From assembly GCA_041663005.1 (NCBI GenBank), contig JBAZRK010000001.1:222734-286733 (forward strand): a stretch of DNA of 64,000 nucleotides. Reading direction: 5' to 3'. The notes beneath the pieces are model-generated. The model made no database searches, was not told where the DNA came from, and saw only the letters and a list, made by a program, of their open reading frames with translations. Below are positions 1,189 to 57,168 of the stretch, one piece after another. The stretch is from Minisyncoccota bacterium (GTDB lineage: Bacteria; Patescibacteriota; Minisyncoccia; Phycocordibacterales; UBA9973). The number at the start of each line of letters is the position of its first letter. Positions within the stretch are counted from its first letter, which is position 1. A program made the translations under genes and the position numbers.

Positions 1189-2488
1189 ACTTAAAATTTT
1201 AATAGTAGGAAGTGGCGGCAGGGAACACGCTGTTGGCTGGAAGGTTAAGCAGTCGCTTCGCGCCGGAGACATCTTCTTCGCTCCAGGGAACGCTGGCACT
1301 GCGAAGCTTGGCACCAATATAGAGATAAAGGCCACCGACATTAGTGGACTTTTGGCATTCGTTCAAAAGAACGAGATAGATTTGACCCTAGCCCTACCTG
1401 ACGACCCCCTCGCACTTGGCATTGTGGATGAATTTCAAAAAACAGGTCTCCGTATTTGGGGACCCACAAAGGCTGCGGCAAGGCTTGAGTGGTCCAAGGC
1501 ATTCTCTAAGAACTTTATGTCCGAACACGAGCTGCCAACGGCTAAGTTCGCTATTTTCAATAATCTTCCACAAGCCAAAGAATATGTGGAGAATGAAATT
1601 TTACCTATTGTTATCAAGGCTAGCGGTTTGGCGCTTGGTAAAGGTGTGGTAATTTGCGAGACAAAAGAAGAAGCTCTCCAAACACTTGAAGACATTTTTA
1701 TAAAAAAAGTTTTTGGCGATGCAGGGCAAGAAATTGTCGTGGAGAAATTTATGGCCGGGCCGGAAATTTCTATTCACGCTTTTTCTGATGGAATAAATTA
1801 TAAAATGTTCCCGCCCTCCCAAGATCACAAAAAGATAGGAGACAACGATACCGGACCAAATACTGGCGGTATGGGGACGATAGCCCCTTTGCCATTCGTG
1901 TCTAACGAATTAATAAACGAAATTGAGAAAAAAATAGTATCTAAAACTATTTCAGCGATGTCTGACTCAAAGACACCTTTCGCGGGAATTTTATACCCAG
2001 GACTCATGCTCACCAAGGATGGACCTAAAATATTGGAATACAACGCCCGCTTCGGCGATCCGGAAACACAAGTATATATGCGCTTGCTCGAAACCGATAT
2101 CTTGGATATTTTTGACGCCTGCATTGATGGCAAACTAAACAACCTAGAGATTAAATGGAAGGACTCTTTTGCCGCCAACGTTGTGCTCGCCTCCGGTGGT
2201 TATCCTGGTAACTACGAGAAGGGTAAAATTATTTCTGGAATCGAGGATGCGGAAGCTCAGAATGATGTAGTGGTTTTTCACGCCGGTACAAAAGTTGCCG
2301 AAGGCCCTGAGTCTAGTCGAAGGAAAGAAATTATGACGAACGGAGGCAGAGTCCTGGGAGTTAGCGCCATAGGACACTCTTTGGAGGAGGCACTGCAGAA
2401 AGCCTACAAAGCGGTAGAAAAAATTTCATTCGAAGGGATGCAGTACCGCAAAGACATCGGGAAGAGCGCACTTTTGCTAAAAAAATAA
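1175..2488 (+). CDS. purD: Phosphoribosylamine-glycine ligase
   Basis: LKILIVGSGGREHA N-terminus and ATP-grasp region. 437 aa. Confidence 0.9.
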   Translation: MSIDKLKILIVGSGGREHAVGWKVKQSLRAGDIFFAPGNAGTAKLGTNIEIKATDISGLLAFVQKNEIDLTLALPDDPLALGIVDEFQKTGLRIWGPTKAAARLEWSKAFSKNFMSEHELPTAKFAIFNNLPQAKEYVENEILPIVIKASGLALGKGVVICETKEEALQTLEDIFIKKVFGDAGQEIVVEKFMAGPEISIHAFSDGINYKMFPPSQDHKKIGDNDTGPNTGGMGTIAPLPFVSNELINEIEKKIVSKTISAMSDSKTPFAGILYPGLMLTKDGPKILEYNARFGDPETQVYMRLLETDILDIFDACIDGKLNNLEIKWKDSFAANVVLASGGYPGNYEKGKIISGIEDAEAQNDVVVFHAGTKVAEGPESSRRKEIMTNGGRVLGVSAIGHSLEEALQKAYKAVEKISFEGMQYRKDIGKSALLLKK

Positions 2489-4195: not shown

Positions 4196-5152
4196 ATGGA
4201 GATAGAGAAAATCAAAGAACACATCGATGATGTTTTAAAAGAAACTAATTTCCCGGAGCTAGGCAAAAAGAAAGCAGGGAAGGTCCGAGATATCTACGAC
4301 GGTGGCGATCGTCTCACGCTCATAGCCACGGACCGACATTCTTCATTCGACCGTGTGATCGCCCACATACCTTTCAAGGGTGAGGTACTAAACCAAATTA
4401 GCCTTTACTGGTTTGAGCAAACCAAAGATATTGTTCCGAATCATGTAATAAGCACGCCCGACCCGAACATTACCGTTGGGAAAAAGATGAAGCTTGTCCC
4501 CGTAGAAGCGGTTATGCGTGGATACTTGACCGGCGTGACTGACACTTCTATCTGGACCCGCTACCAGAAGGGGCTTCGTCAATTTGGAGATTTAACTTTG
4601 CCGGACGGTCTAAAAAAGAACACAAAATTGCCAAATCCAATCTTTGACCCCACGACCAAGGAAGATACCCACGATCGAGCCATCAGCCCTGACCAGATGA
4701 TAGAGGAAGGTCTCATAACAAAGGAATTGCTGACACAGATTAAGGAAGCAGCAACAAAGCTTTTCCTTCGAGGCCAAGAGCTTGCTTTGAAACGCGGACT
4801 CATACTGGTGGACACCAAGTACGAATTCGGCACGGATGAAAACGGTAAATTGGTTCTCATAGATGAGATTCATACTCCGGATTCTTCACGCTACTGGAAT
4901 GCTGGAAGCTATGAGGAGAGGTTTGAGAAAGGGGAGGAGCCGGAATACTTCGATAAAGAATTTCTGCGCCTTTGGTTCAAGGAAAATTGCGACCCTTATA
5001 AGGATGCCATTTTGCCCGAGGCGCCGAAGGACCTCGTAGCCGAACTTTCTCGTCGATACATTGAGATATTCGAGAGGATTACTGGCCAGCCGTTCGAGCA
5101 CGACTTCTCCCTGCCGGTTATGGAGCGAATTACGAAAAACCTTAAGAAATAA
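4196..5152 (+). CDS. purC: SAICAR synthetase
   Basis: GKVRDIY...TDRHSSFDR motif. 318 aa. Confidence 0.85.
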   Translation: MEIEKIKEHIDDVLKETNFPELGKKKAGKVRDIYDGGDRLTLIATDRHSSFDRVIAHIPFKGEVLNQISLYWFEQTKDIVPNHVISTPDPNITVGKKMKLVPVEAVMRGYLTGVTDTSIWTRYQKGLRQFGDLTLPDGLKKNTKLPNPIFDPTTKEDTHDRAISPDQMIEEGLITKELLTQIKEAATKLFLRGQELALKRGLILVDTKYEFGTDENGKLVLIDEIHTPDSSRYWNAGSYEERFEKGEEPEYFDKEFLRLWFKENCDPYKDAILPEAPKDLVAELSRRYIEIFERITGQPFEHDFSLPVMERITKNLKK

Positions 5153-45863: not shown

Positions 45864-46937
45864 TTATATCCCCTCTTTTTTGAGCTCTTCTACTGTTTCG
45901 CGAGCTTTGCGAGAGAGCTTGGAAGGGAGTTTGATGTTTAGTTTGATTAGGAGGTCACCGCGTCTGGTCTTGCCTACAGGCACACCCTTGCCTCGAACTC
46001 GGAGAATTTCATTGATACTTACACCTTCGGGAATAGTGACTTCAATTTCGCCGTCTAAAGTTTTAATAGGGTATTTTGTACCGAGGAGCGCGTCGCTTAA
46101 TTTCAAATCTAGGTCCATCACTAAATCGTTGCCTTCCCTTTTGAAAACCGGGTGCGGAGCAACATTTATCTTAATGTATAAATCTCCTGCCGTACCGCGC
46201 GAAATAGCTTCCCCCATACCGGTCATTCGAATCATTTCTCCATCGCGGATGCCGGATGGAATAACGATTGAAACTTCCTCCTCTCGGCGCAAGACACCTT
46301 TGCCCTTGCACTGTTCGCAGACCTCTTTCGGAACCTCACCCGAGCCATAGCAAGCCTCGCAGATTTTAGTATTGGCGATAGTTCCAAAAATTGTTTTCTT
46401 GGCTTCACGGATATGCCCCTGTCCATTGCACTGTTTGCAGGTTTCCATTTTGGACCCTACCTTCGCGCCTGTCCCCTTGCAGACTAAGCAATTGGAAGTT
46501 TTGGTGATTAAAATTTTTCGATTGGTTCCGAAAACTGCATCCGAAAAAGAAATTTGAATTTCGGTTGAAATATCGCGTCCTCGGCGAGCAGCGTTTCGAT
46601 TCATTCCCCCAGAGAAGAAATCGCTGAAAATGTCGTTGAGGTCGAAGTCCATTCCGCCGTTCTGGAAACCACTGAAGTCGAACCCTCCGAAGCCTTGCGC
46701 CCCGCCGTAACCACCACCCCCCATATTTTCGTACCCGGAGCCAAATTGATCATACTTCGAACGCTTCTCTTCGTCAGAGAGAACCTGGTAGGCTTCATTC
46801 ACTTCTTTGAACTTCTGCTCGTTACCGCCCTTTTTATCAGGGTGATATTTGTGCGCCATTTTATAGAAGGCTTTTTTAACCTCTTCCTTGGTAGCGCCCT
46901 TATTTATACCTAAAATTTCATAGTAATCTTTTGCCAT
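45864..46937 (-). CDS. dnaJ: Chaperone DnaJ
   Basis: J domain [13 protein letters not shown] region, four CxxCxGxG repeats. Confidence 0.9.
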
Positions 46938-46977
46938 AGTTTGTGTATTATACCCGCAGGTGAACTGGGGTCAAGTC

Positions 46978-48492
46978 CTATATCATCGGCTCGGCTTCGT
47001 GCGAGTTCTTGGCTTGGTGATCCGACTCTACCTGGTCGTAGGCTTCGTCTTCGGCCGTGGCATTTTCCGTGCCGTGAGTGTGACTTTTTGCTTTTCTTTC
47101 AATAATTGCCTTCTCCTCGGCGCTACGGATTATAGTTGCTTCTTCTTGGGCTATGAGTCGCGCAGCGGCGTCCTTAGGAATTGAATACTTGCGACGTGAA
47201 GCGGCAATTATCTCTTCTTGATACGACGGATGCGTCGGTGGCAATACACGCAAGGTCTCCGCCGAGAATGGATCGTAGGACTCTCCGTCGATTGTCATTT
47301 TGATATAAAATTCGGTCACCGCCAAGTTAATCATATCTTTAACATCGAAAAGGGGCGCGAACTCCGGCTTCATTTTGACTGCGTCTTCACCACCGATACG
47401 GAAAGTAATGATGCTTCCGCAATTTCCGAGCACCGCTTGGTGCACGCGAGTAATAATTTGACCGACGTACTGGTGCGCTACGGTAAGATTTAATCCATAT
47501 TTGCGAGCCTCAGAGAGAATGTTCTCGAAGGTTTGAGTCACAACGTTCTGGAACTCGTCCACGTATAGGTAAAAGTCTGTGCGGGCGGATTCATCCATCG
47601 AAGCGCGCTCCATCCCCGCTTGTTTAATCTTTGTCAGGAAAATAGAACCCAAGAATGAAGAATTTTCTTCACCTAGGCGCCCCTTCGAAATGTTAATGAG
47701 AACAATTTTTTTCTCATTCATCAACTTCGAAATATCAATCTTATTTTCCTTTTGTCCGAAAATATTGCGGAGCAACGGGTCTGACAGGAATTGCCCCAGC
47801 TTGTTGACCAGAGGAATGATGGCGTCCGTATCGAACTTCTCAGACCAGTCGGCGAATTCAATAGCGAAGAATCTCTTCACCATATCATCCGTAATGTATT
47901 CCACGACTTTCTGCCGGTAATTCCTGTCTGTCAGCATCGAAATCATCCCGCGCATCGTGGCGTGCGGGTAGTCGAGCAAGGCAAGACAGGTAAAGCGGAA
48001 CACGTGCTCGAGCCTAGGCGTCCAGTTGGCGCCGAATTGTTTCTGGAACACCTCGATCAATCCTTGGGTTAAAATAAATTTGAAAGCGGGATCAACGTTC
48101 GCCAGAGGGTTGAAGGATGCCGGATAATCCTTGTCAGTCGGGTCTATGATGCAGACATCGTCGATGCGATTTTTCGGCACGAAGTCAAGAATATTTTTAA
48201 ATTCGTCGCCGTGCGGGTCGATGAAGCATAGCCCGTGTCCATAATTTATATCCTGTCGAACTAGAAGCTCCAAGAGCTTCGACTTCCCCACCCCGGATTT
48301 TCCAATGATGTAGAGGTGTCTGCGGCGGTCGACGCGCTTGATACCGAAAATAAACTTTTTCTCTTCGAGTGAAGCGACATAGTTCGTACGACCGATGAAA
48401 GAAACTTCCGAAGGGTCAACTTTGCCGAAAACAGGCAGCTCCGGAGGCGGAGGTCCGTATTTTATTATTTGAACTCGATTTGGCTTAGGCAT
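46978..48492 (-). CDS. FtsK/HerA/VirD4-superfamily P-loop ATPase (paralog 1, soluble)
   Basis: Walker A GKSGVGKS, Walker B FYLYVDEFQN, ARKYGLNLTVAHQY. Confidence 0.7.
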   Translation of the reverse strand: MPKPNRVQIIKYGPPPPELPVFGKVDPSEVSFIGRTNYVASLEEKKFIFGIKRVDRRRHLYIIGKSGVGKSKLLELLVRQDINYGHGLCFIDPHGDEFKNILDFVPKNRIDDVCIIDPTDKDYPASFNPLANVDPAFKFILTQGLIEVFQKQFGANWTPRLEHVFRFTCLALLDYPHATMRGMISMLTDRNYRQKVVEYITDDMVKRFFAIEFADWSEKFDTDAIIPLVNKLGQFLSDPLLRNIFGQKENKIDISKLMNEKKIVLINISKGRLGEENSSFLGSIFLTKIKQAGMERASMDESARTDFYLYVDEFQNVVTQTFENILSEARKYGLNLTVAHQYVGQIITRVHQAVLGNCGSIITFRIGGEDAVKMKPEFAPLFDVKDMINLAVTEFYIKMTIDGESYDPFSAETLRVLPPTHPSYQEEIIAASRRKYSIPKDAAARLIAQEEATIIRSAEEKAIIERKAKSHTHGTENATAEDEAYDQVESDHQAKNSHEAEPMI

Positions 48493-48607
48493 TGATAGGT
48501 TATTTTATGGCGTAGTGAATTTTGGCGATGTTTATTAAAACGCGCCTGTCGCTTCGCCAAAATCTACTACCCCATTTTACCACAAATCCTAATAAACTTC
48601 CGCCTGA

Positions 48608-48646
48608 CCCGCCTCGACTCGCGTTGCTTCGTCGACGCGAGGCGGG
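48608..48646. other. GC-rich 9-bp-stem hairpin (cccgcctcg ... cgaggcggg) between Cys-rich gene A1 and the ATPase. No clean T-tract follows.
   Basis: Read directly. The inner part contains a SalI-type gtcgac palindrome. Confidence 0.35.
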
Positions 48647-48653
48647 TAACATT

Positions 48654-50378
48654 TTAGTAAACCTCTTGTTGGTAACAACGTTCACAATACACAATTTCCG
48701 GCCGCTCAGGCGCATAAGAAGTCTCAAATTCGACTTCACACTTCCCTTCGTGGTTAGGATGTTTTTTATCGCACATACATTCTCTGCGCCAAAGTCGGGG
48801 CGGATTGACCAACTTAAATCTCTCCTGGTGCCTGCATTCGAAACAGCTTCGGGGTACAGGTAAATTAAATTTTTTCAGGAATAAAAATTCGTTCTGGATA
48901 ATTTTATAGGGCCTTTTGCAAGTTTCACACTCAATGACATAATTGACTATATCATCACTTGTGTCGTGTATGTCCGGCGGTAAATCTTTCGTGGTGTGAG
49001 TTATGCGCTGCTCTGGTTGTTCACGTTCAATATAGTTGTACCCATTGCTTAAAATATCCGCTTTGGTCTGCGGAAAATAATCTTGCGCGATGGTCTCATT
49101 GTAGCCAAAAGGAGAAATATCAATAGGAAAATATTCGCCATATTTATAAATTCTTCCTTTTTTGTCTATATAGGGCATATCCTGCATATGCTTTATTATT
49201 TCTTCCCTGAGTTTTTCAAAATCGTCCTTGGAATATTCTTTGTTAAAAATGCAATAATTTTTATTGCGTAATCCGACACAGCCAAAAATATTATTGCACC
49301 CGTGGCAATTCAGGGAGTATTCCGCGTTCAGACATTCCCATATCGTCAATCCGAAAAGTTGCCGTGAGCCGTTTATGCCAGAATCCATTGCCTCGTATAG
49401 TAATTCTGTGCTGACCCCAACTCCATAGCCGTCGTAACTTGTATAAAGCCCGTGGACCGCATTGGTAGTAAATTTGCAGTCCTTTAGGTCTTCTGAGTCG
49501 AAACAATGATAAGAGTTTTTTGAATGAAGAATATTATCTCCTGAAACATTTGAAGAATTAAGAATGTTGGCAAACTTTCTCAAGCTTTTTAATCGGAGAC
49601 TTTCGAATTTTTTCTTGGCTTCTTTGAAACTCTCAAAATTCCCTATATTTAATTCGCTTAATTTTTTGAAATACTCGTCTTTTGTCAACTGCTCATTCCA
49701 CATGCAGTAAGATTTATTCCTGAGGTTGGTACAACCAAAACAATTTATGCAGTTTTTACAATCATATAAAAAGTAAGAACTGGTGCATGCTTCGGCGTTT
49801 TGTGAAAAGAAAGTTTCGTAACATTTCAAACTAGAAACATCTCCATAGGAAAACTGGCAATCTCTAGTAATAAACATGTCCATGGAGTCTTTGCAATTAT
49901 TGCACCGCGAGCCGTAAGTAACATTTTCGCCGTCCCAAGACGCGGAGACTAGATAAGCGTTCCTGAATTCACCTATATAATTACCGTATGAAGTATTGAC
50001 GCATTTCCCGATAAAAAGATTTGGATGCGGTACTTGCTCCATCAGGTCCCGAAATTGACCAAAAAATGGCTTAGAAAAGTCATACTCCCTTCCATATTCC
50101 GTAGGGTCCCACTGATCGCCCCACCAAATATCTCGTTCGTACACAATAAACGGAGAGTCGGCTGAAAAGCAACTTATGAGATTTTTCCCTGTCTTTCCGC
50201 ATTTATTGCGATGTAGCGTTCTTTCATTTCGCCAAGCCATCCTTCTTTGCATTCTACACTCCGGGCAAAATGTCGGCGGTGGGACCTTTATTTTTTCGTA
50301 AAAATTGAAATCCTCCGACTCGATTGTAAATTTACCGTTACAATTCTGACATATTACATTTTGTGATTTATACTCCAT
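48654..50378 (-). CDS. Cysteine-rich two-ribbon protein, subtype A, copy 1 (574 aa)
   Basis: N- and C-terminal CxxC-x~24-CxxCR zf-trcl-like ribbons (EDFNFYEKIKVPPPTFCPEC). Internal YDCKNCINCFGC..LRNKSYC repeats. Confidence 0.8.
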   Translation of the reverse strand: MEYKSQNVICQNCNGKFTIESEDFNFYEKIKVPPPTFCPECRMQRRMAWRNERTLHRNKCGKTGKNLISCFSADSPFIVYERDIWWGDQWDPTEYGREYDFSKPFFGQFRDLMEQVPHPNLFIGKCVNTSYGNYIGEFRNAYLVSASWDGENVTYGSRCNNCKDSMDMFITRDCQFSYGDVSSLKCYETFFSQNAEACTSSYFLYDCKNCINCFGCTNLRNKSYCMWNEQLTKDEYFKKLSELNIGNFESFKEAKKKFESLRLKSLRKFANILNSSNVSGDNILHSKNSYHCFDSEDLKDCKFTTNAVHGLYTSYDGYGVGVSTELLYEAMDSGINGSRQLFGLTIWECLNAEYSLNCHGCNNIFGCVGLRNKNYCIFNKEYSKDDFEKLREEIIKHMQDMPYIDKKGRIYKYGEYFPIDISPFGYNETIAQDYFPQTKADILSNGYNYIEREQPEQRITHTTKDLPPDIHDTSDDIVNYVIECETCKRPYKIIQNEFLFLKKFNLPVPRSCFECRHQERFKLVNPPRLWRRECMCDKKHPNHEGKCEVEFETSYAPERPEIVYCERCYQQEVY

Positions 50379-50385
50379 ATACTTT

Positions 50386-50658
50386 TTATTCTATAATTCT
50401 AACGAATTGTAGAATACTTTTCCCGCGCTTACTAAGCGTGTGCCGTACTATACTCCCTTCACTTCTCTTTTTTACTAGACCAGCGATGTACATTTTGTTT
50501 ATATGCGCAGAAATATTTTTAAAGTCCGAGTTTACGTCACTAGAAATTTCCTGAACTGATAAATTGGGTTTCTTGCCCAGTAGCTCAAGTATTTTCAACC
50601 TGTTGTGGTTCGCCACTCCCTTTAAAATCCTTTCTAGCTCTCGTTTTGACTTTTTCAT
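50386..50658 (-). CDS. ArsR/SmtB-family winged-helix transcriptional regulator
   Basis: VANHNRLKILELL recognition-helix region. 90 aa. Confidence 0.8.
   Translation of the reverse strand: MKKSKRELERILKGVANHNRLKILELLGKKPNLSVQEISSDVNSDFKNISAHINKMYIAGLVKKRSEGSIVRHTLSKRGKSILQFVRIIE
50389..50414. promoter_or_regulatory. Operator-like imperfect inverted repeat TTCTATAATTC-taac-GAATTGTAGAA, immediately upstream of the Cys-rich A1 start
   Basis: Near-duplicate of the arsR promoter palindrome. Overlaps the last codons of arsR. Confidence 0.4.
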
Positions 50659-50667
50659 AATTTATCT

Positions 50668-50693
50668 ATTCTATAATTCTATAGAATTGTAGA
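50668..50693. promoter_or_regulatory. 26-bp near-perfect palindrome TTCTATAATTCTA|TAGAATTGTAGAA in the arsR promoter region (candidate ArsR operator)
   Basis: 12 of 13 arm positions match. Located about 10-35 nt upstream of the arsR start codon. Confidence 0.5.
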
Positions 50694-50704
50694 ATGCTCG
50701 TAAA

Positions 50705-52393
50705 TTAGTACACCTCTGCCTGATAACATTTCTCACAATATACTATCTCCGGACGTTCTGGAGCATAACCAGTTTTAATGGCTTTACTGCATTTAATGCA
50801 AGTACGGTCATACAAAAGCGGCGGGTTACGTAGGCTTAAACGTTCAGCGTGTCTACAGTTGGGACATAGACGAGGAAATGGTAAGCCCATACGTTTCAGA
50901 AAATCAAGCTCTGTTTTGATGGCCCGAAATGCACCAGTGCATTCGTGCTTACATGAATCTTTGTGTTCGCATCCAAAAACTTCATTTAGAATTTCTTGGT
51001 CAATGTCTTTTATGTCATCAGGTAAATCACCCGTTTTTAGGGTGATATCGTATTTCGGTTTCTCTATTCCATAATAAACAAAACCCTGTTTCTCCATCTC
51101 GTCTTTAGATAACGGGAAAAATTCCTGCGCGGCACTCACTTCGTATGGATGGGGCGCCAGGGCACTAGGGAAAAATTCACCGTATTCCCCTGTCATTTTC
51201 ATATGCTCAATTATTTTTGGTACCAAGGCCTCGTATTCTTCTTTGGTGTACTGTTTATTTAAAATACAATATTTTTTACCACGTAGTGAAATGCAACCAA
51301 AAAGGTATGCGGAACTTATACAAAATACGCAATAACTTGATTCTCGGAGCTCGGGGAAACAATGCGTGGAAAACTTTACATTGTATGCCCCAGTACCAAC
51401 AATGAGCGACTCATATATCAGCTCGGCATTGTTCCCAAAGTTGGAGTAGTCGTAACAATCTCTTACGGGACCATTTGTAACATTTTGGACCCACTTAGAA
51501 TCCTCCACCCCAACAACTCTATAGCAATCATGTGTATTTTTAGACTCATAAATATAGTCACCTGAAACATTTACGTTTTGTCGACTATGTATGAATTTTT
51601 GGGGATAGTTAAGCCAGTGTGCATATGCTTCGTGTTTTATTGTTTCAAAATTTTTATAAGAACCTAAATGTAATTCTTTTATTTTCTTTAAATATTCTTC
51701 GCGTTCATAAGGCTGGTTGAAAATATAATAAGATTTATTGCGCAAACCCACAGATCCAAAGCACGAATTGCAACCTACGCAATCTTTACAAAAAGTAAGC
51801 TCCTGAGAGCTTTCGCAGTCTACTGAGAAAAGAGTCTGGTAGCAAGTTATACAATTAACGTTGCCGTAAGAAAGCTCGCAGGAATTGGTCATATGACTTT
51901 CAAGTGACCCGCGAGAGCCGTGGTCCCAAATAAGATATGCGGAATCTTCTGTATTGGTAGCACCGCGCACGTAATAGCAGTTTTTGATATTGGTAGCGTT
52001 TGTGCAATAAGAGCAATGTACAGCTCTCTCCATAGATGTCGAAGGCCAGGGAACTTCATGCAAGAGTTCTTTAAATTGTTCAAAAAACGGGCGAGAGAAA
52101 TCAAACTCTCTACCGTATATCATTGGATCCCAACCATCCGAAAACCAGAAATCTCTATCGTAAATTTTTATTGGCGATTCTTCAGGAAGAAAAGAGAATA
52201 TTTTTTCTCCTGTACGAGCATCAGTCTTTTTAAAAACGTGCCAATCATTTCTCCATGTCATTCTACGTTGAAATCTGCACCGCGGACAAAATGTCGGCGG
52301 CGGAACTTGCATTTTTTCATAAAAATTAAAATCTTCGTTGGTTATTACGAAGTCTTTTTTGCAATTCTGGCAGGTTCTTGTTTCGGCTTTCAT
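50705..52393 (-). CDS. Cysteine-rich two-ribbon protein, subtype B, copy 1 (562 aa)
   Basis: Same architecture as above. N-terminus M.AETRTCQNCKKDF. CKDCVGCNSCFG repeat. Confidence 0.8.
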   Translation of the reverse strand: MKAETRTCQNCKKDFVITNEDFNFYEKMQVPPPTFCPRCRFQRRMTWRNDWHVFKKTDARTGEKIFSFLPEESPIKIYDRDFWFSDGWDPMIYGREFDFSRPFFEQFKELLHEVPWPSTSMERAVHCSYCTNATNIKNCYYVRGATNTEDSAYLIWDHGSRGSLESHMTNSCELSYGNVNCITCYQTLFSVDCESSQELTFCKDCVGCNSCFGSVGLRNKSYYIFNQPYEREEYLKKIKELHLGSYKNFETIKHEAYAHWLNYPQKFIHSRQNVNVSGDYIYESKNTHDCYRVVGVEDSKWVQNVTNGPVRDCYDYSNFGNNAELIYESLIVGTGAYNVKFSTHCFPELRESSYCVFCISSAYLFGCISLRGKKYCILNKQYTKEEYEALVPKIIEHMKMTGEYGEFFPSALAPHPYEVSAAQEFFPLSKDEMEKQGFVYYGIEKPKYDITLKTGDLPDDIKDIDQEILNEVFGCEHKDSCKHECTGAFRAIKTELDFLKRMGLPFPRLCPNCRHAERLSLRNPPLLYDRTCIKCSKAIKTGYAPERPEIVYCEKCYQAEVY

Positions 52394-52420
52394 TCCAATA
52401 TTCTTGAAAATGTGAGAATG

Positions 52421-54550
52421 TTATTCTAAGATTTTTCGGAGCACGTCTTCAGGAACTTCGGGCGCAGGCTTCGGCACAGGAGGAACTGGCACCTGGGAGC
52501 TCGCGCTAGGGACAGGAGCTTGCGGAGGCGCCACAGGAGGTGCTGGAGGTTTCGGTGGTGCCGGCGGCGGAACAATAGTTTTCTGAGATATAAGATTTTT
52601 AAGTTTATTCATTTCGTCAGGAGTTGCAGCGCGATCTTTGGAAGACCTCGGGTCCTGATTTACATCTCGCATTTTATTTTTCAAAACATCGAGGGAAATA
52701 GGAGCGGGCGTGGGTTTGGGTGCAGGCTGTGGTGTAGGAGAAACAGGCTTGGCCTGAGAGGCATCTTTGGTCATAACCTTAGAGAGCACGTCTTTGAGCG
52801 CTTGGTTGTCTCCGCTTCGCGGCTGTGGCCTTGGAGCCTGCGGTACATTGTTTCTTTCCTGCTTGATAGGCGGTTTTGGCGTAAAAACTTTCTTGACGTC
52901 ACTGACGACTCCGGGTTTGGCAACTGGGGCGTATGGCTTGTCTACACGTTCGGGGTGCCTGTCGTGAGTTTCTATTTTGCTTTCATCTGGCTTAAACTCT
53001 ATGCCTATGTCCGCCAGAGGTTGGAAAAATTCTGACTCATCGTGAATCGGTTCATCCTTTTGACCTTTCTCCACCTTAACCTCCCCAGACTTAATTTTTG
53101 CGATGCATTCCTTACAGTAAGCAGGGCGGCCAGGTTCTGGTTTAAATGGTACAGTGCGTTCTTGTTTACATAGTGAGCAGATTATTGGGAATTTTTCTCC
53201 GGTTGGTGACGGAGCGCTGTTTGGGACACTGTCGCCCAAGGACATCCCGCTCCAGTCGTTGATCTCACGCTCCACGATTTCCCTTGAACGACAGTAAAGT
53301 TCCCTAGAGGATTTGATAACTTCCTCTTCAATGTTTTTGTCCCCTCCCTTTACCATTGGCGGTAAGGTTTTCGCGGAAAAAGGTCGTGAGGTTATGCCGT
53401 CTATCATAAGCTTCATATAGACCTTGTAGTTCGGCAGGTTCACAATGTCCTGGGGAGTAAACTCAGGCTCGAATTCTTTTTCCAAAAATTCTGCATCGTC
53501 GGCACCAACCCTGAAAACAATCATAGTCCCTACGTTGCCGAACACCGCATCGCGGACAGCGGTACTCTTGTCGGAGATAAGCTGCGCGGTGTACTGGTGC
53601 GCCACCGTGAGGTTCAATCGGTATTTGCGGGCTTCGGAGAGAATCCCCGCGAAAGCGTCCGTCACGAAGTTTTGAAATTCGTCGACATATAGATAGAAGT
53701 CTCGTCGGCTTTCTTCCGGTATACGCACACGCTCCATCGCCGCAAGCTGAATCTTGGTAATTATCATACCTCCGAGCAGAGCGGAGTTGTCTTCCCCGAT
53801 TCTTCCTTTGGAAACGTTGACGAGGAAAATTTTCCCCTCGTTCATCATATCGAAAATATTTATTGTACTTTTCGATTGCCCCACGACGTTTCGAATTATC
53901 GAAGTTGAGAGAAACTGCCCGACTTTGTTCTGAATTGGGGCAATGGCTTCATTTCTGAATTTGTCTTGCCAAGCTTCGTATTCGTGAACCCAGAAAGCTT
54001 TAATCACCGGGTCTTTCAAATTTGAAATTATTTTCTGTCGATAGTCCTTGTCGACGAGCATTCTTGGAATTCCCAAAAGTGTCGTCCCCGGGGTGTCGAG
54101 CAAGGCGAGAATTGTATTGTTTAAAATGTATTCCATTCGGGCGCTCCAAGCATTGGCCCAAATTTTCGTAAAGATTCCCATAAGCCCGGACGCCACGAGG
54201 TGCTTGTACTGCGGGTCTACTAATTCCAAAACATTGAACCCTATGTGGTAGTCGGCATCAGCCGGATTGAAATAGATTACATCCTTCAAGCGATGGCGCG
54301 GGATAGCTCCGAGCACTGTCTCCACGTTTTCTCCGTGAGGGTCGACAAGGCAGACGCCTTCTCCGTTCTGGATGTTCTGGATAATCATATTGAACAATAG
54401 TACCGATTTACCGGTACCTGACTTCCCGAGAAGGTAAACGTGCTGACGCCTATCTTTGCGCTTAATACCAAAAAGCTGGTTTCTATCTCGGTAAGTGGTT
54501 AGCCCGATGTAGGTAACGTCTTTGTTTATAGGTATTTCCGCAATCTCCAT
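52421..54550 (-). CDS. FtsK/HerA/VirD4-superfamily P-loop ATPase (paralog 2) with a C-terminal zinc ribbon and Pro-rich tail. The start is re-set to the internal Met.
   Basis: Walker A GKSGTGKS, Walker B FYLYVDEFQN. CSLCK...RPAYCKEC ribbon. PAPPKPPAPP low-complexity tail. The track start at 54667 would read through the dnaK terminator. Confidence 0.7.
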   Translation of the reverse strand: MEIAEIPINKDVTYIGLTTYRDRNQLFGIKRKDRRQHVYLLGKSGTGKSVLLFNMIIQNIQNGEGVCLVDPHGENVETVLGAIPRHRLKDVIYFNPADADYHIGFNVLELVDPQYKHLVASGLMGIFTKIWANAWSARMEYILNNTILALLDTPGTTLLGIPRMLVDKDYRQKIISNLKDPVIKAFWVHEYEAWQDKFRNEAIAPIQNKVGQFLSTSIIRNVVGQSKSTINIFDMMNEGKIFLVNVSKGRIGEDNSALLGGMIITKIQLAAMERVRIPEESRRDFYLYVDEFQNFVTDAFAGILSEARKYRLNLTVAHQYTAQLISDKSTAVRDAVFGNVGTMIVFRVGADDAEFLEKEFEPEFTPQDIVNLPNYKVYMKLMIDGITSRPFSAKTLPPMVKGGDKNIEEEVIKSSRELYCRSREIVEREINDWSGMSLGDSVPNSAPSPTGEKFPIICSLCKQERTVPFKPEPGRPAYCKECIAKIKSGEVKVEKGQKDEPIHDESEFFQPLADIGIEFKPDESKIETHDRHPERVDKPYAPVAKPGVVSDVKKVFTPKPPIKQERNNVPQAPRPQPRSGDNQALKDVLSKVMTKDASQAKPVSPTPQPAPKPTPAPISLDVLKNKMRDVNQDPRSSKDRAATPDEMNKLKNLISQKTIVPPPAPPKPPAPPVAPPQAPVPSASSQVPVPPVPKPAPEVPEDVLRKILE

Positions 54551-54581
54551 TCCATTAATAATACCAGAAATACCACAAACT

Positions 54582-54606
54582 AAAAAGCCCCTTGCGGGGC
54601 TTTTTG
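54582..54606 (-). terminator. Intrinsic terminator immediately downstream of dnaK
   Basis: aaaaa gcccc ttgc ggggc ttttt, 3 nt after the dnaK stop codon. Confidence 0.7.
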
Positions 54607-54608
54607 AA

Positions 54609-56522
54609 TTACTTAGCTTCGTTCTGAGGAGGTTCCTCGCCTTCTTTCTTTTCCTTGAATTCCGCATCTTTGACTTCAGCGGGTTGTTCTTCGGGGGCTC
54701 CGGTTGGCGGAGTTTGAGCGCCAGCCTTGTTCATTGCCTCACCGATTTTGGACATTTCGGCAGACAATTCTTCGGTGGCCTTTTTGATAGCTTCGCCGTC
54801 TGTTCCATCTTTTACCCCACGAAGCGCAGTAATTTTCGCCTCCACTTCAGTTTTCAATTCTGCGGAAATTTTGTCTCCGGCGTCTTTCACCGCTTTTTCT
54901 GCTGTATAGATAATCATCTCGGCGGTGTTTTTCACTTCAGCATTTTCTTTCTTTTTCTTGTCTTCCTCGGCGTGCACTTCAGCGTCCGCTTGCATCTTTT
55001 TGATATCTTCTTCTTTGAGCCCGGAGCTTGCTTCAATTTTTATTGATTGAGTTTTACCTGAAGCCTTATCTTTCGCAGTAACATTCAATATTCCGTTGGC
55101 ATCCACATCGAATGACACCTCAATCTGCGGCATACCTCGAGGAGCTGGCGGAACACCGTCCAGGATAAATCGCCCGAGAGATTTGTTATCGCTTGCCATT
55201 GGGCGCTCTCCCTGCACAATGTGAATTTCTACAGAAGTCTGATTGTCGGCAGCTGTAGAGAAGGTCTGGGATTTACTGGACGGGATGGTGGTGTTTCTTT
55301 CCACTAATTTCGTAGCCACGCCTCCGAGAGTCTCAATTCCCAGAGAAAGCGGAATAACGTCGAGGAGGAGAACATCGCGTACATCTCCTTGCAAAACTCC
55401 GGCTTGCACCGCAGCACCAAGAGCGACGACTTCGTCAGGGTTAATGGTTAGGTTAGGAGCTTTGCCAAATACTTTTTTCACTTCTTCTACAATCTTCGGC
55501 ATCCTGGTCTGACCTCCGACCATCACTATTTCATTCATATCTTCCATCTTGAATCCAGAGGCAGCCATAGCTCGCTTGGTAATTTCGATAGAGCGAGTAA
55601 CGTATTCATCTGCTAGGGATTCTAACTGCGCCCGAGTCATCTTGAGCAATAAGTGCTGAGGACCTTCTGCTGTAGAAGTGATAAATGGAATGTTGATTTC
55701 GGATTCTATTGCAGTAGAGAGCTCAATTTTTGCTTTTTCTGCTGCTTCGTCTAAGCGTTGCAATGCGAGCTTGTCTCCGCGCACGTCCACTCCGGAAGTT
55801 TTCTTAAATTCTTCGGCAATCCAGTTAATTATCTTGTGGTCAATATCTCGTCCGCCCATATGGCTGTCTCCGTCTGTAGACTTAACTTCGATGACATCAT
55901 CTCCGATTTCGAGCACAGACACGTCGAATGTTCCGCCTCCGAAGTCGTAGACCACTATTTTCTCATTTTTCTTTTTATTAAATCCGTAAGCGAGGGCCGC
56001 CGCTGTAGGCTCGTTGATAATTCTTTTTACATCGAGTCCGGCAATTGCACCTGCGTCTTTCGTTGCCTTTCTTTGGGCATCGTTAAAGTATGCGGGAACA
56101 GTGATGACAGCTTCAGTAATTTTCTCGCCGAGTTTTGTTTCGACGTCAGTTTTAATTTTAGAAAGAATCATCGCCGACACTTCTTCCGGTCGCATCCACT
56201 TATCACCGATTTTTACTTCCACTCCGCCGTTGGCAGATTTTTGAATTTTGAAAGATGCATTCTTTAAATCTTTCTGCACTTCAGGATCTTCAAAATTGTG
56301 ACCCATAAAGCGCTTGATGCCGTACACTGTATTTTCCGGATTGGTCACCGCCTGCCTTTTCGCAAGTAAGCCTACAAGCCTGTCTCCATTTTTAGCAACG
56401 GCTACTACCGAAGGAGTCGTGCGGTTCCCTTCTACGTTTTCAATAATTTTCGGCACACCGCCCTCTATGACGGCTACCGCAGAATTTGTCGTACCCAAGT
56501 CTATTCCTATGATTTTTGACAT
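54609..56522 (-). CDS. dnaK: Chaperone DnaK (Hsp70)
   Basis: [32 protein letters not shown]. Confidence 0.95.
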
Positions 56523-56646: not shown

Positions 56647-57168
56647 ATGTCAAGGAAAAAGGACTACTCGGGCAAAATAATCAAAATTTTAGGCAAAAAA
56701 CCGGCTACTTCTGTCGAAGAAATTTGGACTGGTTTCCCTGACCAGAATCGATATTCTGTAACTAGATCATTAAAGGGCCTTCGTGAGGCAGGTCTCATTG
56801 AGGCTCTTTCCTCCGCTCATTGTGAATATGCACGCCTCACAAAAGAAGGAAAAAAGAAAATGCATAGTCTAATTCTCGAGAGTAATACTGGCCTGGTGAA
56901 CACTTCCTGGGACGGATTTTGGAGGATAATTTTGCTCGACCTTCCAGAAGAAAGAAAAAGCGAGCGCGAAAGTCTGCGCTACCTACTAAAAAAAGCTGGC
57001 TTCGTCTGCCTAAAGAATTCTGCCTGGATCTCCCCTTTCCCATACGAGCATCTCTTCACAAATATTAAAAAAGATTTAGGCCTGACGACAGAAATGATGA
57101 TTATGGTCACCGACAAAATCGACGAAGAATCTAAAAAGGTTTTATTTCAAACCTTCGGGCAAAGTTAA
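56647..57168 (+). CDS. PaaX-like transcriptional regulator (wHTH plus PaaX_C-like domain)
   Basis: C-terminal WDGFW...LPEER...LRYLL.KAGF..L.NSAWISPFP matches the PaaX C-domain pattern (recalled from memory). Confidence 0.55.
   Translation: MSRKKDYSGKIIKILGKKPATSVEEIWTGFPDQNRYSVTRSLKGLREAGLIEALSSAHCEYARLTKEGKKKMHSLILESNTGLVNTSWDGFWRIILLDLPEERKSERESLRYLLKKAGFVCLKNSAWISPFPYEHLFTNIKKDLGLTTEMMIMVTDKIDEESKKVLFQTFGQS

Follow-up and report, generated by a model that had tools for sequence, protein, structure and literature searches.

A regulator gene and its two flanking palindromes

We analysed a stretch of DNA of 64,000 nucleotides (nt), called the window from here on, from a Minisyncoccota bacterium (NCBI GenBank assembly GCA_041663005.1, contig JBAZRK010000001.1, positions 222,734 to 286,733). 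We focused on a small gene, arsR, which encodes a putative ArsR/SmtB-type regulator of 90 amino acids (aa), and on two 28-bp palindromes which flank it. One palindrome, named O_P, lies in the 46-nt gap 5' of the gene and the other, named O_3', lies at its 3' end, just before a gene for a cysteine-rich (Cys-rich) protein. In window positions, these features are:

50386..50658, minus strand: arsR, predicted ArsR/SmtB-fold winged-helix regulator, 90 aa, recognition helix FKNISAHINKM, specificity class G1 (classes are described below)
50668..50695, no strand assigned: O_P, 28-bp palindrome with 13/14 pairs, ending 9 nt before the arsR ATG (50658)
50388..50415, no strand assigned: O_3', 28-bp palindrome, ending 9 nt before the ATG (50378) of the 574-aa Cys-rich gene
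48654..50378, minus strand: 574-aa Cys-rich protein downstream of the regulator, the proposed target gated by O_3'

Read on the plus strand, O_3' is ATTCTATAATTCTAACGAATTGTAGAAT and O_P is ATTCTATAATTCTATAGAATTGTAGAAT; the two copies are identical at 26/28 bases and their sole differences fall in the central 4 bp. An earlier note on this DNA, made from the sequence alone, had reported two such copies near arsR, and both exist. The core coordinates which it gave for O_3' (50389..50414) are correct, those for O_P (50668..50693) are one base too low, the core being 50669..50694, and the distance from O_3' to the Cys-rich start is 9 nt and not 11 nt. Where the note described a 12-2-12 operator, we found a 12-4-12 architecture (14 + 14 in the promoter copy). 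The note had also considered that the motif might occur at random positions, which was not seen in the 64 kb: exact matches to the 11-nt half-site were only the four arms themselves, allowing one mismatch added four more (chance expectation 3.9), and the 28-mer with up to three mismatches had no further copy in the window and none in 100 shuffles. The operator scan with position weight matrices (PWMs) was confined to these 64 kb of the source genome. On the PWM of class G1, O_P scored 38.8 bits and O_3' 34.5 bits, against a shuffle maximum of 7.7 bits.

O_3' is made up of the last nine arsR codons (ILQFVRIIE, 27 nt) and the T of the TAA stop, meaning that one piece of DNA serves both as coding sequence for the end of helix alpha5 and as operator sequence. 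This dual-coding nature of O_3', together with a third site at 52392..52419, is an addition to what the earlier note contained.

The assignment of the regulator to the ArsR/SmtB family by the earlier note was borne out. The protein matched Pfam HTH_5 (PF01022) at 32.1 bits, above the curated cut-off of 22, and scored 48.1 against NCBIfam NF033788 HTH_metalloreg, which is under the cut-off of 55. Profile matches in PDB included HlyU (1.4e-8), CadC (1e-5) and CzrA (1e-4), as well as NolR and PagR. An AlphaFold2 monomer model (predicted local distance difference test score 85) had the topology H-H-H-H-E-E-H, with helices at residues 5-15, 18-29, 35-42, 46-58 and 77-89 and strands at 62-67 and 70-75, and a Foldseek search with this model gave template modelling (TM) scores of 0.77-0.79 to CadC, HlyU, CzrA and SmtB. 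The model confirmed the predicted alpha1-alpha2-alpha3-alphaR-beta1-beta2-alpha5 winged-helix fold.

The 90-aa sequence contains no cysteine, and alpha5 (residues 77-89, KRGKSILQFVRII) holds no His and no Asp which could act as metal ligands. The invariant histidines H18, H52 and H73 lie in alpha2, the recognition helix and the wing, away from known sensing sites. With neither Cys nor an alpha5 His or Asp, no described ArsR/SmtB metal, metalloid or thiol site is possible. Judged by its residues, the regulator is a member of the fold family outside the sensor subgroups, and whatever induces it is not sensed by way of a metal or thiol site of the kinds known from ArsR/SmtB proteins. For the theme of metal or redox control which the earlier note had proposed for this cassette we found no support, and we have removed that annotation. 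The note had itself named a lack of sensing residues as something that would count against its reading, and this is what the sequence shows.

We found 140 close homologues (64-83% identity) in Patescibacteria metagenomes, nearly all of exactly 90 aa, among which the C-terminus SILQFVRIIE is almost invariant. An exhaustive search of 1.8 billion representatives gave 361 clusters at E up to 1e-3, mostly of 88-100 aa.

Conservation, co-variation and specificity classes of the paired sites

We compared 80 genomic loci of homologues from Patescibacteria, cited below by L numbers, for which the open reading frame (ORF) calls are crude. The terminal 28-mer of the regulator gene, which runs up to and includes the first base of the stop codon, had a mean of 10.4 complementary pairs out of 14 across the 80 loci, while other 28-mers from the same genes had 3.6 ± 1.7; at least 8 pairs were found in 76/80 loci. 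An upstream copy matching the 3' copy at ≥ 20/28 positions was present no more than 110 nt upstream of the start in 74/79 loci (mean match 23.6, compared to 14.0 ± 1.4 in control windows of the same loci). The two copies also co-vary: pairs from the same locus matched at 23.62 positions, while permuted pairs matched at 19.71 ± 0.27, with a maximum of 20.71 in 2000 permutations.

Codon usage in the last nine codons differed strongly from that in the gene body. Arginine codons were AGA in 68/71 instances, as opposed to 28% in the gene body, glutamate was encoded by GAA in 65/66 (59% in the body), isoleucine was never encoded by ATC (20% in the body), and the leucine at position -8 was encoded by CTA in 54/80 loci, even though CTA is the rarest leucine codon of the body (6.5%). 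For pairs of the same amino acid, codon identity in the tail and in the body was 0.89 and 0.49 in class G1, 0.76 and 0.37 in G2, and 0.72 and 0.37 in G3. As tail codon identity far exceeds that of the body, conservation at the protein level is not a sufficient explanation and synonymous sites in the tail are constrained at the DNA level. The promoter copy was the better palindrome in 28/34 G1 loci and 14/22 G2 loci, as would be expected if the need to encode protein degrades the 3' copy.

In two Liptonbacteria-like loci, L040 and L046, the 3' codons of the regulator are no longer palindromic (C-terminus AVLTFCRSLK) and a near-perfect second operator is instead found 45-55 nt past the stop. The operator pairs lie at 4934..4961 and 5318..5345 in L040 and at 4939 and 5329 in L046. 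What has been conserved is thus the presence of two sites around the gene, of which the distal one usually falls within codons.

The loci fall into three specificity classes, which differ in recognition helix, in operator and in the C-terminal residues encoded at the palindrome centre:

Class G1: recognition helix SxxKNISAHIxKM; operator ATTCtAAtaTTC-taTA-GAATttTAGAAT; central residues F-V-R
Class G2: recognition helix INFKTxSEHIRRL; operator ATTCTcAaATTC-TtaA-GAATaTtaGAAT; central residues F-L-R
Class G3: recognition helix IGYxNASDHxRKL; operator ATtCtAgTgTTT-TGCA-AAAtactagaAT; central residues F-C-K

When operators were assigned to a class by leave-one-out PWM, the result agreed with the class of the recognition helix (motifs KNISAH, KTxSEH and NASDH) for 73/74 of the 3' copies and 72/74 of the promoter copies. 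Because the palindrome centre is read as codons, the C-terminal peptide changes along with the operator, and the conserved cysteine of G3 proteins is the TGC at the palindrome centre. Classes can coexist in one genome, as loci L073 (G3) and L078 (G2) originate from the same metagenome-assembled genome, and locus L004, with a G1 regulator, has a G3-type site at 2385..2412, before gatB. We also noted that four distant representatives (P0257, P0259, P0260 and P0315) end in F-Y-R-x-L-E; only their protein sequences were available, and F-Y-R, if encoded as TTC TAT AGA, would give the symmetric TTCTATAGAA centre found in G1 promoter copies.

The agreement between operator and recognition helix bears on whose sites these are. 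The palindromes could be operators of another DNA-binding protein, with the ArsR-like protein having other targets, as might be suggested by the third site in the window, which fits another operator class, and by the coexistence of paralogous classes in one genome (L073 and L078; L004). However, the sites are physically tied to the regulator gene in 74/79 loci and switch class together with its recognition helix, and we consider this explanation highly improbable.

It is also conceivable that the palindromes act as RNA hairpins, serving as stability, processing, terminator or translational elements of the arsR mRNA or its 5' region, and are not bound by protein as DNA. Both fold more stably than shuffled sequences (-9.5 and -6.9 kcal/mol, z = -3.9 and -2.7), and among arm positions which are not Watson-Crick pairs, G.U combinations (35 and 33) outnumber A.C combinations (19 and 21) to some extent. 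This bias is weak, however, and most of these positions are transversions which break the pair (69 and 65). The stems are themselves weak and AT-rich, with no U tract, being followed by AAAAAG or AGATAA, and we found no site resembling an intrinsic (Rho-independent) terminator in 50250..50850 and no match to an Rfam covariance model in 50200..52600 at E up to 1. What the copies share is sequence, including at non-palindromic positions, and not mere pairing potential, and operator class tracks the DNA-recognition helix. Furthermore, if the outer TAGAAT of O_P is a -10 box (see below), O_P would not be transcribed. We regard a role as RNA hairpins as improbable.

Palindromic direct repeats of 28 bp around one small gene might alternatively be recombination or mobility sites, such as dif/Xer-like 11-6-11 sites, attC-like ends or the ends of miniature inverted-repeat transposable elements, which flank a mobile arsR cassette. 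The gene is indeed found in several different neighbourhoods, and locus L006 has an identical extra 3' 28-mer 1.08 kb downstream. Against this, gene order is stable over many Nomurabacteria loci, with most loci of this type reading MYG1, Obg, GatB, fructose-bisphosphate aldolase, the regulator, FAD-linked oxidase, L25, lytic transglycosylase and L31. The sites are not dispersed, being found at this gene and a few nearby promoters only; one of them has been selected jointly as coding sequence and as DNA over deep divergence; and mobility would leave the class-specific match to the recognition helix unexplained. Of all the explanations weighed here we give this one the least credence.

Predicted control of arsR and of the gene downstream

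Among the 60 window genes (ORFs ≥ 100 aa), a Shine-Dalgarno motif was found in 4, and TATAAT-like (-10-like) hexamers were concentrated 6-9 nt before the ATG in 20. The scarcity of Shine-Dalgarno motifs and the closeness of these hexamers to the start codons point to widespread leaderless or near-leaderless mRNAs, and suggest that the mRNAs of this genome are mostly leaderless. Both palindromes contain hexamers which fit this pattern:

50673..50668, minus strand: outer TAGAAT of O_P, candidate -10 box, 9 nt before the arsR ATG (leaderless geometry)
50681..50676, minus strand: inner TAGAAT of O_P, candidate -10 box, which pairs with TTTACG (50704..50699) at 17-nt spacing
50388..50393, minus strand: outer TAGAAT of O_3', candidate -10 box of an internal leaderless promoter, within the codons ..ATA GAA T.. 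and 9 nt before the Cys-rich ATG

The arrangement of TAGAAT followed after 9 nt by ATG is identical at O_P and O_3' and typical of promoters in the window genome, so that O_3' may itself have promoter activity. At G2 loci the operator is further upstream (median 37 nt) and its outer arm (TTGGAA or TTGAGA) lies 17 nt before a separate TATAAT, which amounts to an overlap with the -35 element, and the TTGCAA at the operator centre of G3 loci resembles a -35 element. All three classes have a site which overlaps predicted core promoter elements, as would be required of a repressor.

Autoregulation via a palindrome which overlaps the promoter is the norm in the ArsR/SmtB family. We propose that the regulator is a dimeric ArsR-fold repressor which autoregulates via O_P and also gates the next gene via the self-encoded O_3', and we consider this reading probable. 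A minimal 90-aa repressor would, as a dimer, recognise the 28-bp 12-4-12 palindrome ATTCtAAtaTTC-taTA-GAATttTAGAAT. O_P spans the -10 region of the promoter of arsR, which is probably leaderless, and binding of the dimer there would result in negative autoregulation. At O_3' the bound repressor would occlude an internal promoter serving the downstream gene, prevent transcription from reading through into that gene, or do both, and O_3' may also cooperate with O_P. Binding of the protein to O_P and O_3', repression as its outcome, and occlusion, roadblock or looping as its mode at O_3' are what we infer from the sites. The earlier note had predicted autoregulation of arsR together with separate control of the Cys-rich gene; autoregulation and downstream control are still the best reading, given the paired sites in 74/79 loci, the co-variation with the recognition helix and the -10 overlap, but the 3' copy is not specific to Cys-rich genes.

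The genes found downstream of the regulator vary and include FAD-linked oxidases, Cys-rich proteins, small unknown genes and even convergent genes. A co-directional start no more than 40 nt past the stop was found in 49/75 loci and within 250 nt in 15 more. The 3' site thus goes with the regulator gene throughout the family and is no specific feature of the Cys-rich gene.

It should be noted that several observations weigh against this reading. The downstream gene is convergent in about 10/75 loci which nonetheless retain the 3' palindrome, meaning that gating the next gene cannot be the sole role of the site. A consensus promoter scan found no -35-like hexamer before O_3', and the gap from O_3' to the next ATG ranges from 3 to 83 nt across loci; in locus L080 the stop and the next ATG overlap (ATGA). 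With a variable gap and no -35 element, an internal promoter is not assured everywhere, and O_3' may be an internal promoter-operator in some lineages and a read-through roadblock in others. The distance between the two operators (273-369 bp, mode 280-285 bp) showed no signal of helical phasing at periods of 10-11 bp (Rayleigh p about 0.1) and hence gives no support for looping. The third site in the window fits class G2 better than the class of the resident G1 protein. Lastly, the three specificity classes are three clades, which leaves few independent events of co-variation between helix and operator.

Some of the same observations could be explained if O_3' were merely an auxiliary operator for the regulator's own control, either cooperating or looping with O_P or acting as a roadblock which truncates the mRNA in the manner of lacI O3, with no dedicated downstream role. 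The palindrome at the gene's 3' end is retained even in loci with a convergent or distant next gene, L040 still has a second operator past its stop codon, the site goes with the regulator gene irrespective of what follows, and roadblock autoregulation by LacI at O3, at the end of the repressor gene, is a precedent (PMC3711431). On the other hand, the distance between the operators is not phased, the next co-directional start follows closely in 49/75 loci, the TAGAAT-9-ATG geometry in the window is the same at both sites and typical of promoters in this genome, and a 90-aa ArsR dimer has no known tetramerisation module. As the sole explanation we consider this rather unlikely; it is compatible with the gating of the next gene via O_3'.

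If repression at O_P and gating at O_3' do occur, a broader interpretation would be that the regulator gene is a self-contained, portable control cassette whose last nine codons are its own operator, and probably its -10 box too, such that any gene found downstream falls under its control. A change in DNA specificity would then need coordinated changes in the recognition helix, the promoter operator and the C-terminal peptide, and would have happened at least three times (FVR/TTCGTTAGAA, FLR/TTCTTGAGAA and FCK/TTTTGCAAAA). We put this interpretation forward tentatively and hold it to be somewhat more doubtful than not. Were it true, this would be a family-wide transcription factor with an amino-acid sequence partly dictated by its own binding site, with orthogonal paralogues coexisting in one genome.

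We compared this arrangement to known systems. ArsR/SmtB autorepressors without metal sites (of the HlyU, NolR, PagR and SdpR type) are alike in fold and size class, in having a palindrome which overlaps their own promoter, and in the absence of canonical metal ligands; they differ from the family described here in that ours has a second operator in the regulator's own C-terminal codons, family-wide. The operator also differs from the classical ArsR 12-2-12 TGAA..TTCA in being 12-4-12 with TTCTA..TAGAA arms, and the regulator in the window, which lacks Cys, differs from the thiol switches HlyU, BigR and SqrR. By analogy, the closest counterpart appears to be lacI O3, an auxiliary operator known for roadblock autoregulation and looping. 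It is situated where the repressor gene ends, shortly before the operon under control, and can both help to repress the next promoter and cut short the repressor's own transcript (PMC3711431). The arrangement in the window would function like a usual ArsR-family autorepressor with an added intragenic auxiliary operator of this kind. The lac system, however, involves a LacI/GalR tetramer and is a single-locus feature in which lacI has no operator in its own promoter. In the Patescibacteria family, the operator inside the gene matches the promoter operator in strength, has been retained throughout a phylum-level radiation and determines which C-terminal peptide is made (FVR, FLR or FCK).

Repressor sites inside coding DNA which add to promoter control include gal OI in galE and the purR operators in that gene's own transcribed region. 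These are not located at the C-terminal codons of the regulator, and we know of no co-evolution of such sites in three orthogonal classes. A literature search, whose coverage was incomplete and which is hence no proof of novelty, found no description of this family or arrangement. What appears to be new, in that we could not find it described, is the combination of a family-wide operator in C-terminal codons, selection at synonymous sites, and switching of the helix, the promoter site and the peptide together three times.

Patescibacteria (the Candidate Phyla Radiation) have tiny genomes with few regulators and almost no experimentally defined cis-elements. Comparative sequence here yields a testable regulator-operator pair, in three classes, which covers hundreds of uncultured lineages. 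It is also a case of natural dual-coding DNA, in which a protein's C-terminal helix and its own operator share one stretch of 28 bp, with selection evident from the synonymous sites, and it illustrates how adjacent genes could be insulated or gated in genomes which are compact, poor in terminators and largely leaderless. The three classes could also be put to use as orthogonal repressor-operator parts.

The third site and the surrounding genes

The third operator-like palindrome and the paralogue of the Cys-rich gene lie on the other side of the regulator:

50705..52393, minus strand: 562-aa Cys-rich paralogue upstream of arsR, with 39% identity to the 574-aa protein and its stop 9 nt from O_P
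52392..52419, minus-strand sequence ATTCTCACATTTTCAAGAATATTGGAAT: third operator-like palindrome, which overlaps the ATG of the 562-aa Cys-rich gene by 2 nt

The third site occupies the 27-nt gap between a VirD4-like gene and the 562-aa Cys-rich gene and scored 22.2 bits with the G1 PWM, for which shuffles reached at most 7.7, and 33.6 bits with the G2 PWM, for which they reached at most 8.7. We found no G2-type regulator and no second ArsR paralogue in the window, the only weak match being a PaaX_M protein at 56647..57168. The site would either be weakly bound by the resident protein or be served by a paralogue elsewhere in the genome.

Extra sites also precede nearby genes in other loci, namely a Cys-rich gene (L011) and small unknown genes (L016 and L028). 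In L049 (4772..5387), six G2 operator copies surround one regulator: three lie upstream of it, a fourth is within its last codons and the remaining two are downstream. Four copies each were found in L043, L045 and L055. The extra copy in L006 (6324..6351) is an exact (28/28) match to the 3'-terminal 28-mer, 1.08 kb downstream of the regulator, and comes after an unrelated 349-aa ORF.

On the minus strand of the window the gene order is dnaK, a 748-aa VirD4/TraG-like ATPase, the 562-aa Cys-rich protein, the regulator, the 574-aa Cys-rich protein, a 504-aa VirD4-like ATPase and dnaJ. Within this region (45864..56522, minus strand), the five-gene block which parts dnaK from dnaJ has the look of a two-gene module that was duplicated around the regulator. 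The same order of VirD4-like, Cys-rich, regulator, Cys-rich, VirD4-like and DnaJ was found in the window, in L001, L005 and L021, and in the distant L080; a Cys-rich gene is downstream of the regulator in these loci and in L012.

The position of arsR between dnaK and dnaJ, along with a weak match to Phr, prompted us to consider a link to a heat-shock regulon. This was rejected, as most relatives have the gene between aldolase and FAD-linked oxidase and there is no operator before dnaK or dnaJ.

The Cys-rich proteins had no curated match to a Pfam or NCBIfam family, with sub-threshold matches to treble-clef zinc fingers at both ends of the paralogues. They belong to a family of more than 7000 uncharacterised homologues, and the named matches among the best 120 listed were all from Patescibacteria. 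The same zf_Tbcl_2 motif was found above threshold (39 bits) in the 748-aa VirD4-like protein. The longest ORF of this gene (52421..54667) overlaps the end of dnaK (54609..56522) by 59 nt, and its true start is probably further downstream.

The PaaX_M protein, of 173 aa (56647..57168, plus strand), is divergent from dnaK and has a PaaX_M (Cas2-like) domain at 70.7 bits. It could be a local heat-shock or other regulator. Weak winged helix-turn-helix similarity was seen at its N-terminal end (56674..56853, about residues 10-69), and a TATAAT lies 6 nt before its ATG.

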